A stretch of 64,000 bases of DNA from Escherichia phage vB_EcoM-Pr121LW. The position numbers and the translations under genes were made by a program. The stretch lies in the sequence record MH752840.1, one strand, 5' to 3'. How positions within the stretch are numbered: position 1 is the first letter of the stretch; every line of letters begins with the position of its first letter. Shown piece by piece: positions 21,911 through 27,061 of this stretch. The notes under the pieces were generated by a model that was given only the letters and a program-made list of their open reading frames with translations, was not told the origin of the DNA and did not search any database.

Positions 21911-23287
21911 ATGCCATATTTAGATAAAGTGGTAGATGTTACAGTTAACCTCGGAACCCAGCCTATCGACACTGTAGGTTTCGAAACTCCCCTGTTCATC
22001 GCTATCCACAATAACTTTACTGAGCGAGCTCGCGTATATGCGGAGCTGGATCAGATGGTGGAAGATGGTTTCGCACAAGGCTCTGCAGCGTATGAGTTTG
22101 CAGCAAAAGCTTTTGGTGGTGTATTCCCTCCACAATACGTTATGATCGGCAGACAGGCCAAAGAAAAGACCACTGTAGATTTTAAAGGTATTGCTGCCGC
22201 AGCTGATACCGATGTTGTAATGACTATTGCAAAAGGTGACTACAATACTGCCTTGATAGTCCCTATCTCTGGTGGAACAGGGGCAACCCAGATCGCAGAG
22301 GCAATGAAGGAAAAAATTGAGGCTGATGATAGCTTAGACGGTATCACCGTACAGGCCGAAGAAGGTGTTATCACCATCACTGGTGATTGTACTGTTGGTT
22401 ATCATACTGGTAACTACACGATCAAAAACATTGCTAATAGTGAAAAACCTTCTACCGTGATCGACAAGATCAACGCTGAGCAGGATAATTGGTACTTCTT
22501 GTGCCATGAAGACCACACAGATATTGAAGCATGTGCTAAGTGGGCTCAGGCTAACTACAAACTGCATGTCTACTCTACTGCAGAAGATGTGACTGGCAAA
22601 GACAGCAACATTGCCACTAAACTGAAAGCTGCAAAATATGACAGTATTGGTATGTACGACCCTCGCGCCGACAAAGACTTCCCAGAGGGCGGTATTATCG
22701 GTGCTATGGCATCCAACGATCCGTCCTACGGCGACAGCTTACACTTAAAACAGATGCCTGGTGTTCTTGCACCATCCCTGACCTTGACCCAGCGCATGGC
22801 GATTTGGGAGAACAACATTAACTTCTACAGAACAATCAACGGTGTTGGTGCTTTCTGGGAAGGTAAATGTGCTTCTGGTCAGTATGCAGATGCTATCCGC
22901 TTCGCCCACTGGATTAAATTCAGATCCGAAGAGTCTATGTTTGGATACATGCATCGCCGATCTAATATGGGTCTGAGCATGAAGATGTCTGATGATGATC
23001 TTCCGGTTATCAAGTCTGTCCTGATGAACAACCCAATTAATACTGGCATTAAGAATGGTGCGATCCTGACAGGTTTCGACGAAGACAATAATGTATTCTA
23101 CGACCCGATCATCACAGTTCCTAAACGTGCAGAAATCCCAACCAATCAGTTGGCTGCTCGTGTTCTGGAAGGTGTGAAAGTAGAACTGGTGTACAATAAC
23201 GCCCTGCACTTCGTTCGTATCCGGATCAACGTCCTTCTGGACAAAGTTGGTTCTAAATCCACCAATGCTGTTGCAATGACTGAATAA
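21911..23287 (+). CDS. tail sheath-like major tail protein
   Basis: 458 aa; followed by a 157-aa tube-like protein, a frameshifted chaperone pair and the tape measure, the P2/Mu-type gene order. Confidence 0.5.
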   Translation: MPYLDKVVDVTVNLGTQPIDTVGFETPLFIAIHNNFTERARVYAELDQMVEDGFAQGSAAYEFAAKAFGGVFPPQYVMIGRQAKEKTTVDFKGIAAAADTDVVMTIAKGDYNTALIVPISGGTGATQIAEAMKEKIEADDSLDGITVQAEEGVITITGDCTVGYHTGNYTIKNIANSEKPSTVIDKINAEQDNWYFLCHEDHTDIEACAKWAQANYKLHVYSTAEDVTGKDSNIATKLKAAKYDSIGMYDPRADKDFPEGGIIGAMASNDPSYGDSLHLKQMPGVLAPSLTLTQRMAIWENNINFYRTINGVGAFWEGKCASGQYADAIRFAHWIKFRSEESMFGYMHRRSNMGLSMKMSDDDLPVIKSVLMNNPINTGIKNGAILTGFDEDNNVFYDPIITVPKRAEIPTNQLAARVLEGVKVELVYNNALHFVRIRINVLLDKVGSKSTNAVAMTE

Positions 23288-23297
23288 GGAAGCCTAG

Positions 23298-23771
23298 ATG
23301 GAAACTCAAATTTTAACTCCTTATGCGTATGACCCTAAAAAGGTCAAACTGTATCTGATGCAGCAGCGTGTCACTGGCTTCGCTGCTGACACCAAGATTG
23401 TTGTTTCAAGAAACGAAGACAACATTTATCCTCACGTCGGTGTGGATGGTGAAATGTCTGCGGCTCTGTCCCGTAACCAATCTGGTGTTATGACTGTGTC
23501 TTTGCAGAACACTTCTGTATGGAACGCTTACCTTTCTGACTGGCAGAAACAGGCATCGATTACTGGTCTGGTATTCTTCCCAGTTCTGCTGGAAGGTAGC
23601 CAGGGCCCTGGTATTTCCACAATTGGTTGGATCCAGAAACAGCCTGACCTGACTTACGGAACCGAAGTAGGTCAGCTGGACTGGGATATCGGTATTCTGG
23701 ATGCATGGCTCAACCGTGATAACATCACTGGTGCTCTTACTGGCCTCGCAGGTCTTGCAGGTATTATCTAA
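23298..23771 (+). CDS. tail tube-like protein
   Basis: 157-aa ORF immediately after the sheath-like gene. Confidence 0.5.
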   Translation: METQILTPYAYDPKKVKLYLMQQRVTGFAADTKIVVSRNEDNIYPHVGVDGEMSAALSRNQSGVMTVSLQNTSVWNAYLSDWQKQASITGLVFFPVLLEGSQGPGISTIGWIQKQPDLTYGTEVGQLDWDIGILDAWLNRDNITGALTGLAGLAGII

Positions 23772-23787
23772 GGGCACACTTTAGCAT

Positions 23788-23816
23788 AAGCCTCACCTTC
23801 GGGTGGGGCTTTTTGC
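23788..23816 (+). terminator. rho-independent terminator
   Basis: Hairpin GCCTCACC-TTCG-GGTGGGGC followed by TTTTT. Confidence 0.6.
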
Positions 23817-23862
23817 TTTTATGGTTTTGACACACGTTCTTGAATTGCTTGAAAGGTTAAAT

Positions 23863-23891
23863 TGACAATGCACCATAATCATGGTAAAATA
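23863..23891 (+). promoter_or_regulatory. sigma70-like promoter (TTGACA-N17-TAAAAT)
   Basis: Consensus hexamers with TGGTAAAAT extended -10. Confidence 0.5.
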
Positions 23892-23933: not shown

Positions 23934-24407
23934 ATGGCTATAAACTTTAGACCTACAACAGAGATTGATTTAGCAGGGCACAACTTTGTGATCACCCACT
24001 GGGGACCGATGAAAGCAATGAAAAACATGCCTAAAATCGGTAAGATTGTGGCTGTCCCGCTAGGTGCTATCGGTGGATCTATTATCTCTGGTGGTCAGAA
24101 TATGGCAGAGGTCCTTCCTACTGCTCTGGCTTACCTGTTCCAAGAACTTGATGATAGCTCTATTGAAGAGTTATTTAAAATCTTGTTCGAAGATATTACC
24201 GTAGATGGTGTGGATAAGCTTAACCCAGATGTTGTGTTTGCAGGGCATCTGCTGGAGATGATTAAGCTGGCAGGTAAGGTTCTGGAGGTTAACTACGGCT
24301 GTTTTTTCACACAAGACGGTTTAGGAAGCCTTCTGGAGATGTTACAGCAGATGGGTATGATTCAGCAGGTGAACAACCTGGATCAGACTCCGGAAGAGCA
24401 GGAATAA
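23934..24407 (+). CDS. tail assembly chaperone (in-frame product)
   Basis: 157-aa acidic protein directly upstream of the tape measure gene. Confidence 0.6.
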   Translation: MAINFRPTTEIDLAGHNFVITHWGPMKAMKNMPKIGKIVAVPLGAIGGSIISGGQNMAEVLPTALAYLFQELDDSSIEELFKILFEDITVDGVDKLNPDVVFAGHLLEMIKLAGKVLEVNYGCFFTQDGLGSLLEMLQQMGMIQQVNNLDQTPEEQE

Positions 24408-24667
24408 GCAAGGTTGTTGTGAGGGCCAGTGAGTGGGCAGCCAAGAACAGTTCACTCAACTGGTTCGACTTTCTTTGGTGCAGGGTGCTCAAGAATTTCA
24501 AAGGGGAAAATTTTGAATCGCTAAATCTTGCAGATATGGCGTATTTCCTGAAGCTCTGTGAGTATCTTGATATTGAAGAATTCCTAGATACCGTCCAAAA
24601 CAGGGAAATGGAGCGGGAGCAGAAGGCTGCCGCAGCTGCTGCGAAAGCTAAGCGCAGGAGAGGATAA
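23934..24667 (+). CDS. tail assembly chaperone, predicted -1 frameshift fusion product
   Basis: Slippery heptamer T-TTT-TTC at 24302-24308 in frame; the -1 frame is open from 24308 to the stop at 24667. Confidence 0.5.
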
Positions 24668-24672
24668 TCTAA

Positions 24673-24707
24673 GGGCCGGATTCCTTTTCTGGGATCTGGC
24701 CCTTTTT
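24673..24707 (+). terminator. possible terminator or attenuator
   Basis: 8-bp stem GGGCCGGA/TCTGGCCC followed by TTTTT, between the chaperone and tape measure genes. Confidence 0.35.
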
Positions 24708-24721
24708 ATTATGAGGAAACC

Positions 24722-27061
24722 ATGGCTACAAACAAAATAGTTGCCACAACAGTCAACAAGATTGGCTTTGAGATAGAGAACTCCTCCTACAAAAAAGCTG
24801 TAGAGAAAATTCGCAGTATTGGGAGGGAGTTCAGGAAACTAGGCGAGGATTTTAACTCAGCCAACCCCATGGGTAGATGGCAGGCGGTAGCTGTTAAAAC
24901 CCAGCAGACAATGCAGAGGGTTGCCAGACAGCAATCCCAGGCAAATGCTAAACTGCACAGGGAGAGCGTAACACAGGCTAAGAAAGAGGCTGCAGTAAGG
25001 GCTGCAATAGAACGTAGGGAGAATGCGAGACGTAAACAAGCTGTAGGTAATCTTACCGCTAAAAATCCAGAAATGGTTAGGATGCGTAAGTTCTATCAGC
25101 AGCAAGCTAAAGAGGCCAAAAAGGCTGCCAAATCTGCACCAGTGTCTTACGGTGGTTATAAGGCACCTAAGGCAAGAGTTCTGGCTAATGCCAAATCTTT
25201 CAAATATATCCCCGGTAACCCTAATATGGGTGGTGTGGCTTCCGACCCTAATCTTGTGAAAGCGCAGACAGCCGCTATGAATCGTTATCATAGACAGCTA
25301 AGAAGGGACGGTAAGGCTGGCATGGATAATAGGCTTATGTCGGATCGTGAGGCAAGGAGAACCCACCTCTACAACTCAGCGATAAGACTTTCTGCCAAGT
25401 ATGGTGCCGGATTCCGTGGAAGCTTGCCAGGATACTCAGAGTTAGAGTCCAGGTTTGCTCGTGGGGAGATGAAAAAGTCAACATTTAACGCCCACTTGTC
25501 AGCGCTGCAGTCTGGATTTAAAAGCGCCACCAGTCAAACGCTTACACTAGGCGATGCCATGAGAGACCTACGTAGGTCTGTTATTAATGCAACAGCTGCG
25601 TATACGGCTTTTTCTGGATTTACTGCTGTTAACAGATCCGGTCACATGATGGAGGGTGCAAGTGCTGCTCTTACTGCTGTTACTGGAGATCCAAACAAAG
25701 CCAACAGTGAGGTTGCGTTTGTCCAGCAAGAGGCTATGCGTCTTGGTTTTGATCTCAAATCTGGTCTTCAAGGTTACGCCCAGATGGCGGTAAACGCCAA
25801 AAACCAGATGACAAATCAGGAGGTTCATGAGCTGTTCTCTGCATACTCCCAGTATGCTGCTGCTTATGGTGCCGATGAGGTAAAATACCAGCGTGGTATC
25901 ATGGCAATCCAACAGATGCTAGGCAAGGGACAAGTAATGTCCGAAGAACTGAAGCAACAACTTGCTGAAGCATTGCCTGGTGCATACGAACCTTTTATCA
26001 AGGCCACCAAAGAGGCTTTTGGTCTTTCTGAACTCTCCATGGATCAGTTCATGGACATGATGAAGAAAGGTGAGGTTAAAACAGCTAAGATCATGAAGTA
26101 TGTGGCTAAGTACATGAACGAGGCATCTGCAGCTGGTTATGAAAGAATGCAGAAGTCTAACGTACTGGCAGAAAACAGACTGAAAACCTTCATCGAACTG
26201 TCTCGTCAGAAACTGTTCACCCGTTGGGCAGATGAATTGACAGAGTTCTACTACACCCTGATCCGCACAGGTGAGACTCTGCAATTTGTGTGGGATGCCT
26301 CAGGTGATTTTGTTAGCGGATTTATTAGAGGCCTTAACTGGGTTGTTGGTGAGCTAAACAACACTATAGTTAAGATCCGCCTGTTTTTCCTTGAGTGGGG
26401 CATCAAATGGGGGTTCATAACAGCTAAGACGAAGGAGTATTCCGAAGAGCTGCATGACACCTTCAGCACTGCCAAATGGGCAGGGTATGCTGCTGCCATT
26501 ATGCTGGTAGTGCACGCTCTTACAAAAGGGTTTGTCATGGCATCCATGCTTGTAAAAACTTTTAAGTTCCTTAGCACCCTGAAAGGTGCAGCTGGAGCTG
26601 CTGGCGCTGGTGCCATCACCACAGGGGGTTCTGTAGGTGGCGCAGCAGGAAAAGGTGGTGGAATAAAAGCACCAGGCATCAAAGGTACCGGTATGTTAGG
26701 CAAGTTGGGGATACTTGGGACATTATTGAGTGCTGGGGCTATGGTTAATGATCGTTTCAACCCTTTCAGTGAGAGAAATCAACAGCTGGATACTATTAGT
26801 GACATGATCCGCAAAGATATAGTATCGGGTGGCAACGGGTTTGTTAATCCTCTAGACACTTTACCTGGTGGAACCCTTCCGCTACCCGGTGGTCCTGGTT
26901 TTGCCTCTCAACTGAGAACCATGGAAATGTTACCTTTGGAGATCAGCGATGGTAAAATCACCATTTCGATAGATGAAGGTGAGTTTAGCAAAATACTTGA
27001 TGCAAAACTTGAGTGGGAGAATAGCAAAGATATTAACTTTATGTCAACAGATCTTTGGTAA
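24722..27061 (+). CDS. tail tape measure protein
   Basis: 779 aa, helical N-terminal half, Gly-rich segment, hydrophobic segment; follows the chaperone pair. Confidence 0.7.
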   Translation: MATNKIVATTVNKIGFEIENSSYKKAVEKIRSIGREFRKLGEDFNSANPMGRWQAVAVKTQQTMQRVARQQSQANAKLHRESVTQAKKEAAVRAAIERRENARRKQAVGNLTAKNPEMVRMRKFYQQQAKEAKKAAKSAPVSYGGYKAPKARVLANAKSFKYIPGNPNMGGVASDPNLVKAQTAAMNRYHRQLRRDGKAGMDNRLMSDREARRTHLYNSAIRLSAKYGAGFRGSLPGYSELESRFARGEMKKSTFNAHLSALQSGFKSATSQTLTLGDAMRDLRRSVINATAAYTAFSGFTAVNRSGHMMEGASAALTAVTGDPNKANSEVAFVQQEAMRLGFDLKSGLQGYAQMAVNAKNQMTNQEVHELFSAYSQYAAAYGADEVKYQRGIMAIQQMLGKGQVMSEELKQQLAEALPGAYEPFIKATKEAFGLSELSMDQFMDMMKKGEVKTAKIMKYVAKYMNEASAAGYERMQKSNVLAENRLKTFIELSRQKLFTRWADELTEFYYTLIRTGETLQFVWDASGDFVSGFIRGLNWVVGELNNTIVKIRLFFLEWGIKWGFITAKTKEYSEELHDTFSTAKWAGYAAAIMLVVHALTKGFVMASMLVKTFKFLSTLKGAAGAAGAGAITTGGSVGGAAGKGGGIKAPGIKGTGMLGKLGILGTLLSAGAMVNDRFNPFSERNQQLDTISDMIRKDIVSGGNGFVNPLDTLPGGTLPLPGGPGFASQLRTMEMLPLEISDGKITISIDEGEFSKILDAKLEWENSKDINFMSTDLW

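Follow-up and report, generated by a model that had tools for sequence, protein, structure and literature searches.

In Citrobacter phage Moogle, a Felix O1-like phage, the 'tape measure chaperone' is entered in GenBank as a two-piece join with an annotated translational frameshift, and the paper on that genome mentions the frameshift. A paper from 2025 contains passages predicting that the chaperone loci of the Vandenendeviridae (Pakpunavirus Adele) and Andersonviridae, which are stated there to be related to the Vequintavirinae, undergo a -1 frameshift at a GTTTTT motif that is conserved (PMC12846349). In phage lambda (Levin 1993; Xu, Hendrix and Duda 2004, 2013, 2014), gpG and gpGT are encoded by overlapping reading frames between the major tail and tape measure genes, and a -1 slip on an X XXY YYZ heptamer, G GGA AAG, yields a short and a long product with a common N-terminus; neither product is found in virions, and the two are made in a ratio of about 30:1 (PMC5009743). 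Herein, the corresponding locus of Escherichia phage vB_EcoM-Pr121LW (MH752840.1) is described and compared with these systems; the whole 64,000-nucleotide stretch of DNA that was analysed is referred to as the window.

Identity of the phage and layout of the tail module

Over the 1-kb stretch around the site, identity is 100% with Escherichia phage JLBYU08 and 99.8% with phage rV5 (Vequintavirus), and 121 phage records match this stretch; by this identity, the window belongs to an rV5-like Vequintavirus. About 20 unannotated GenBank entries that carry the name 'Campylobacter phage' (MG0656xx, with C. jejuni as host) share at least 98% identity with the window's rV5-like phage, and the -1 extension described below is matched by a 2-kb entry called 'Enterococcus phage IME_EF3'; these entries are probably mislabelled or contaminants. 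The genes follow one another in the order sheath, tube, chaperone, -1 ORF and tape measure, with the following features:

21911..23287: sheath gene (DUF3383)
23298..23771: tube gene (KPP10_Orf10)
23862..23890, + strand: sigma-70-like promoter before the chaperone gene (TTGACA, 17 nt spacer, TAAAAT, with TG ahead of the second hexamer)
23934..24407, + strand: tail assembly chaperone, short form by standard decoding (157 aa, 17.2 kDa; Pfam and PHROGs)
24671..24704, + strand: intrinsic-terminator-like hairpin (14-pair stem and T tract) between the -1 ORF stop and the tape measure gene
24722..27061, + strand: tape measure gene (779 aa; Pfam TMP_3, 3.7e-18; RefSeq annotation)

The chaperone matches the Pfam family PF21822 (Phage_TAC_15) over residues 15-129 with E=3.3e-23, scoring 83 bits against a curated gathering threshold of 22, and the PHROGs family phrog_3840, 'tail assembly chaperone', at 6.5e-69. 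Both the chaperone ORF and the -1 ORF lie between the tube and tape measure genes, the position held by G/GT in lambda. The window would also resemble phage P2 in its contractile tail, in the T-rich nature of the slippery run and in having a -1 extension ahead of the tape measure gene; E and E+E' of P2 are reportedly produced by a myovirus tail chaperone frameshift on a T-run (a case said to have been reported by Christie et al. in 2002). P2 E belongs to a different Pfam TAC family, and a Pfam search of the window gave no match to the P2 E family.

The putative chaperone promoter, assigned by consensus match at 11 of 12 positions, is the annotated P51 of the rV5 RefSeq entry, and the hairpin at 24671..24704 is a rho-independent terminator according to the rV5 annotation. 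Another terminator-like hairpin follows the tube gene (23788-23811). With a terminator-like hairpin before it, a near-consensus promoter and a second terminator-like hairpin behind it, the chaperone gene has the appearance of its own transcription unit, and a terminator separating the chaperone from the tape measure gene is an unusual layout. In the Rheinheimera phage Barba5A (Barbavirus), the -1 ORF is separated from the tape measure gene by an inserted reverse-strand gene for a 'putative DNA binding protein' (L011 2132-2770), which breaks the usual adjacency of chaperone and tape measure.

Geometry of the probable slip site and comparison with known systems

The features of the slip site and its predicted products are as follows:

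24302..24308, + strand: slippery heptamer T TTT TTC (X XXY YYZ) in 0-frame register
24308..24667, + strand: -1 frame extension (119 codons and TAA)
23934..24667 (23934..24308 joined to 24308..24667), + strand: predicted long chaperone (244 aa, 27.1 kDa), deduced from comparative evidence

The preliminary description had placed an in-frame T TTT TTC at 24302-24308, and the codon register of 23934..24407 bears this out: the chaperone codons TGT (24300), TTT (24303) and TTC (24306) encode residues C123, F124 and F125 of 157. The -1 frame, which had been said to stay open to a stop at 24667, is closed by TAA at 24290-24292 and is indeed open from 24293 to the TAA at 24665-24667. The heptamer had also been located near the end of the chaperone ORF, which holds only loosely, as it does precede the stop but is 32 codons away from it, at the very start of the overlap between the two frames. 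This overlap measures 115 nt, and T TTT TTC is the sole in-register heptamer within it. The junction tryptic peptide of the predicted fusion would be VLEVNYGCFFHTR.

To put this arrangement against chance, in-register heptamers were counted in the window's ORFs of at least 200 aa: 32 were found in 14,711 codons (0.22% per codon), a rate that predicts about 0.08 heptamers per 38-codon overlap. None of the 32 is TTTTTTC, and the -1 frame behind them stays open for a median of 6 and a maximum of 22 codons, against 119 at the chaperone site. Furthermore, TTTTTTC is depleted on the two strands of the whole window, with 8 copies against 16.7 +/- 3.8 expected from dinucleotide shuffles, a depletion that is consistent with a general avoidance of slippery runs.

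The lambda system is matched in the overlap of two ORFs between the major tail and tape measure genes, in the -1 slip site of the X XXY YYZ type and, as predicted for the window, in short and long products sharing their N-terminus. In contrast to lambda, the window uses another heptamer, placed 32 codons rather than a few codons before the stop, its tail is contractile, and it has a candidate upstream Shine-Dalgarno-like (SD-like) stimulator; no sequence similarity of the window's proteins to lambda gpG/gpGT was detected.

With Moogle, the chaperones themselves are homologous (24% identity, pairwise E=7e-07). LEANFGSFF of Moogle aligns opposite LEVNYGCFF of the window, and T TTT TTC stands in register at the aligned FF in both phages. 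In both phages, GGAGG lies 13 nt upstream of the heptamer and the -1 ORF reaches just before the tape measure gene; the stop of the Moogle -1 frame coincides exactly with the end annotated for the long form. The Moogle proteins are shorter, however, with a 133-aa short form and a 93-codon extension, their C-terminal domain is not obviously alignable by eye to that of the window, and the GenBank join of Moogle is lacking in rV5-like records. For the Vandenendeviridae and Andersonviridae loci, the published passages follow the same argument, an uninterrupted -1 frame and a conserved poly-T motif near the 3' end of TAC-N. The frameshift analysis in those passages concerns the loci of these two families and not the Vequintavirinae or Stephanstirmvirinae, and the passages contain neither an SD-like element nor a start-codon test (PMC12846349).

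Conservation of the heptamer

A tblastn search with the chaperone returned 490 phage records, of which 12 diverged ones were taken for comparison. The sample comprised six Vequintavirinae (Seunavirus PVP-SE1, Henunavirus, Avunavirus, W70 and two Certrevirus phages); K54_rec2, a PVP-SE1-like Klebsiella phage whose record taxonomy goes no deeper than Viruses; phAPEC8 and FKP3 (Stephanstirmvirinae) along with Eryne, which is similar to them and is again classified in its record no deeper than Viruses; and Aeromonas phiA009 and Rheinheimera Barba5A. The chaperones of the relatives are 28-57% identical to the window's protein. An overlapping -1 ORF was found downstream of the chaperone in 13 of 13 GenBank lineages sampled, opening a few codons upstream of the homologous slip position in all 12 diverged relatives, and T TTT TTC stands in register at ..NYG(C/P)FF.. 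or ..YYKSFF.. in 11 of these 12. In addition, the same arrangement was present in 33 of 33 IMG/VR relatives, with 101-132 open -1 codons; since these loci were retrieved by a peptide pattern containing FF, their codon choice alone is informative.

The 45 loci bearing the T-run reduce to 25 distinct 45-nt contexts. Throughout these 25 contexts, the first Phe is TTT and the second TTC, and the codon before FF, which is TGT, CCT or AGT (Cys, Pro, Ser), has T at the wobble position, so that the three synonymous positions of the heptamer are invariant. The codons beside the heptamer vary freely (TAC/TAT, GGC/GGA/GGT, GTT/ATT/ATC/GTG/GTC/GTA). Elsewhere in the same genes, Phe is encoded by 106 TTT and 103 TTC codons, and T makes up about 30% of third positions; dS between the lineages is saturated. 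The fixation of the synonymous positions despite saturated dS and an approximately 50:50 use of the Phe codons argues for selection on the heptamer at the nucleotide level. As the lineages are not independent, simple probabilities calculated from these counts overstate their significance.

In Stephanstirmvirinae-type relatives (L009, L012, L013 and many IMG/VR loci; for example, L009 1872-1881), the site reads CCCTTTTTTC. This sequence holds two overlapping in-register heptamers, C CCT TTT and T TTT TTC, which may offer two tandem slip positions leading to the same frame.

The one relative of the 12 that departs from the pattern is Barba5A, which has ..HYGCLTSGKSF.. at this position, with neither FF nor a T-run. 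It carries instead G GGA AAG, the heptamer of lambda, in register about 3 codons downstream and within the -1 overlap. This exchange of one slip site for another argues that slipping itself is selected. It also weighs against the view that nothing is recoded at all, and that the heptamer simply encodes a conserved Phe-Phe pair next to a -1 ORF that is not joined to the chaperone. The near invariance of FF in the proteins would suit such a view, as would the fact that TTT TTC is one of just four possible codon pairs, but Barba5A lost FF and yet gained another slip site, and neither the codon pair nor the wobble base before it changes in any of the 25 contexts, although Phe codon usage is roughly equal and dS is saturated. 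An absence of recoding is thus barely credible.

The same observations bear on whether the ribosome or the RNA polymerase slips. If the polymerase slipped on the T6 run, some mRNAs would gain one U and yield the same 244-aa fusion, as the sequence predicts that a transcript with one extra U encodes the identical protein, CFFHTR... Homopolymer runs are employed in this manner by some bacterial genes and IS elements (reviewed in PMC5009743). Transcriptional slippage typically needs 8-9 or more A or T, however, and six T are short for efficient slippage in bacteria. In all T-run relatives, the run is exactly T6, in register and followed by C, rather than a long homopolymer. Moreover, G GGA AAG in Barba5A is a classical ribosomal site with no homopolymer run, which favours the ribosome over RNA polymerase, and polymerase slippage is considered very improbable.

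The -1 extension

Ribosomal slipping at the heptamer would append to the chaperone a linker rich in Gly, Ser, Pro and Asp (fusion residues 126-160), followed by a conserved C-terminal domain (..KNSSLNWFDFLWCRVLKNFKGE..). Alignment of the -1 products from the relatives gives the same picture, with a variable linker encoded in the overlap and then the block A(I/L)EYAxKNSSLxW(F/Y)DYL...LLKLNEYLD. The extension matches the PHROGs family phrog_10409, of unknown function, at 8.5e-51. For the C-terminal domain, there was no Pfam match, the PHROGs matches were limited to families of unknown function, and no sequence relatives were found in the PDB at E up to 1. An AlphaFold2 single-sequence model of the fusion was unusable (pLDDT 37, pTM 0.22).

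In the part of the -1 ORF outside the overlap, dN ranges from 0.17 to 0.53 with dS saturated, and dN/dS was 0.09 and 0.24 for the two pairs in which it could be computed. Low dN against saturated dS identifies the -1 ORF, on comparative sequence grounds, as a real coding sequence under purifying selection. Furthermore, no ATG, GTG or TTG was found upstream of the conserved block in pEa55, K54rec2, PBES02, F5M2A, Eryne and the IMG/VR loci L018, L041 and L037. In these eight lineages, the block is translatable only by ribosomes arriving from the chaperone ORF. The window's own lineage has a GTG at 24419, so that the absence of a start holds at the level of the family and not strictly for the window sequence. 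A -1 ORF that is selected as coding sequence, yet has no conserved start, is a further argument against an absence of recoding.

These data bear on the possibility that the downstream ORF is a separate small gene with its own start, at GTG 24419 (82 aa) or CTG 24299 (122 aa), to which the heptamer would be incidental. Such a gene is what public records annotate, with the GTG 24419 start in JLBYU08 and CTG 24299 in rV5 gp050, and in the window a weak AAGG precedes GTG 24419 by 5 nt. The annotated starts differ among relatives and often cut into the conserved domain, however, and CTG 24299 is merely the -1 codon directly ahead of the T-run. At least eight lineages lack ATG, GTG or TTG before the KNSSLxWxDYL block, and the precedence of the conserved block over any possible start in many lineages argues that the -1 ORF is not a separate gene. 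A separate gene would also leave the invariant synonymous positions of the heptamer unexplained. It is accordingly regarded as highly unlikely, and decoding by way of the chaperone ORF is preferred.

Gene callers and public records give inconsistent starts and fragments of 43-102 aa. An exhaustive HMMER protein search found no in-frame chaperone-extension fusion of about 240 aa; it returned the 43-102-aa fragments and a few proteins of 737-1311 aa that matched in several short stretches and are probably unrelated. An indexed search for natural fusions gave 3 short matches.

Candidate stimulatory elements

One further feature lies just upstream of the heptamer:

24284..24289, + strand: Shine-Dalgarno-like GGAGGT inside the chaperone ORF, candidate 5' stimulator, 12 nt upstream of the heptamer

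A spacing of 9-14 nt is the range in which -1 shifts are stimulated by SD-like sequences (PMC5009743). In the window, the duplex of GGAGGT with the anti-SD sequence has an energy of -10.0 kcal/mol, the best of any 12-mer in the whole chaperone ORF, and the spacing of the element, 12 nt in the window and 12-13 nt overall, falls within the dnaX-type range of 9-14 nt. In 19 of 27 distinct contexts, that of Moogle among them, pairing at this place reaches -5.8 kcal/mol or better. Glu is encoded within the element by GAG in 17 of 22 contexts, compared with a GAG share of 30% in the rest of these genes. The element is absent from the Certrevirus-like lineages, K54rec2 and phiA009, which argues that it is likely a modulator and not a requirement. 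An SD-like element at the spacing of ribosomal stimulators would be irrelevant to RNA polymerase, and this is another point against transcriptional slippage.

A downstream stem-loop or pseudoknot had been named in the preliminary description as a possible stimulator, and none was found for the window's lineage. The minimum free energy fold of 24309-24420 is no better than that of shuffled sequences (z=-1.44), RNAalifold gave 0 consensus pairs for 14 diverse sequences, and no stable stem-loop of the dnaX type was found in the window 5-9 nt 3' of the heptamer. The upstream SD-like element is the better candidate stimulator. In E. coli dnaX (gamma/tau), an internal SD-like sequence 9-14 nt upstream of the heptamer likewise precedes the slip site, as GGAGGT does at 12 nt in the window. 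The dnaX shift also needs a strong downstream stem-loop and takes place at about 50%; no such stem-loop was found in the window. In addition, the dnaX shift truncates its product, whereas the shift in the window would extend it.

When the alignment was restricted to the Vequintavirinae, a 6-bp long-range helix was found that is paired in 9 of 10 aligned sequences and includes two compensatory pairs. Its 5' arm begins 6 nt after the heptamer and its partner lies just past the 0-frame stop (columns 14-19 with 114-119 of alignment A3; for example, L003 1879-1884 with about 1976-1981). The helix reads GACGGT/ACCGTC against AGCGGT/xCCGCT in PVP-SE1-like and Certrevirus-like relatives. Its score, with 86.7% of cells paired, was reached by 1 of 500 shuffles. 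The two compensatory pairs represent one clade-level event and the helix is broken in the window's own sequence; it is offered as a lead only.

A broader proposal, possible but on balance doubtful, is that the frameshift of the Vequintavirinae, Stephanstirmvirinae and Felix O1-like phages, which form a large myophage clade, is tuned by a conserved 5' SD-like stimulator (CTG GAG GTN, maintained by synonymous choice), to which the long-range helix would be added in some genera. If true, this would bring a stimulator layout of the dnaX/IS type to a phage chaperone frameshift. Phage chaperone frameshifts are usually described as heptamer-only.

Proposed mechanism

Altogether, a ribosomal -1 slip at T TTT TTC very probably makes a long form of the chaperone. 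The preliminary description had read the site as a chaperone frameshift of the G/GT (lambda) or E/E' (P2) kind upstream of the tape measure gene, and this reading is upheld by the position of the ORFs, the geometry and conservation of the heptamer, the lack of a conserved start in the -1 ORF and the Moogle precedent. What the sequences show directly is the geometry of the site and its conservation, that the -1 ORF is coding, and that it lacks a conserved start codon. The occurrence of slipping, its rate, the part played by the SD-like element and the binding partners of the products are what we infer from them, and they enter the following scheme as such.

Most ribosomes would read 23934..24407 and produce the 157-aa chaperone. 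A minority, holding tRNA-Phe in the P site as well as the A site, would shift one base backwards on U UUU UUC (24302-24308), read CAC at 24308 and continue through 119 codons to the TAA at 24665-24667. UUY codons in the A site and all-pyrimidine heptamers are frameshift-prone in E. coli (PMC4066793). The resulting 244-aa product would consist of the shared N-terminal 125 residues, a flexible linker and the conserved C-terminal domain. Pairing of GGAGGT with the tail of the 16S rRNA probably raises the slip rate, by analogy with E. coli dnaX. If the products act as gpG and gpGT do in lambda (PMC5009743), the N-terminal part common to both would coat the tape measure protein, the tail tube subunit would be brought in by the rare C-terminal domain, and the slip rate would fix the ratio of short to long product.

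Annotation status and significance

In the RefSeq entry of rV5 (NC_011041), the -1 ORF is listed on its own as gp050, a 'hypothetical protein' of 122 aa with a CTG start (window 24299-24667, L001 3500-3868). In other records, the start of the -1 ORF is placed at differing internal ATG or GTG codons, or the region carries no annotation. No joined CDS was found among the feature names of about 100 GenBank records of rV5-like and related phages, nor in 14 records checked feature by feature. The rV5 genome and proteome paper makes no mention of a frameshift, chaperone, tape measure, slippery site, gp50 or gp51, and no report was found in a search, incomplete in its coverage, of the literature on frameshifting or chaperones in the Vequintavirinae, Vequintavirus or rV5-like phages. 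Homology to Moogle, together with the lack of an rV5-like report among the literature found, identifies the window's site as homologous to a known frameshift and as one that rV5-like records have so far left unannotated.

The site is an ordinary, unannotated case of a well-known form of phage recoding. The finding changes no concept, and the SD-like element is a modest mechanistic lead. The main value of the finding lies in annotation, as the -1 ORF belongs in a joined CDS for the long chaperone form. Since rV5-like phages are widely used as therapy and biocontrol candidates, a correct annotation of the tail module is of practical use. The conserved T TTT TTC site at ..NYG(C/P)FF.. is hereby extended from Felix O1-like phages to the Vequintavirinae, the Stephanstirmvirinae and the Aeromonas relatives, and the lineages with and without the SD-like element form a natural series for learning how the slip rate is set.
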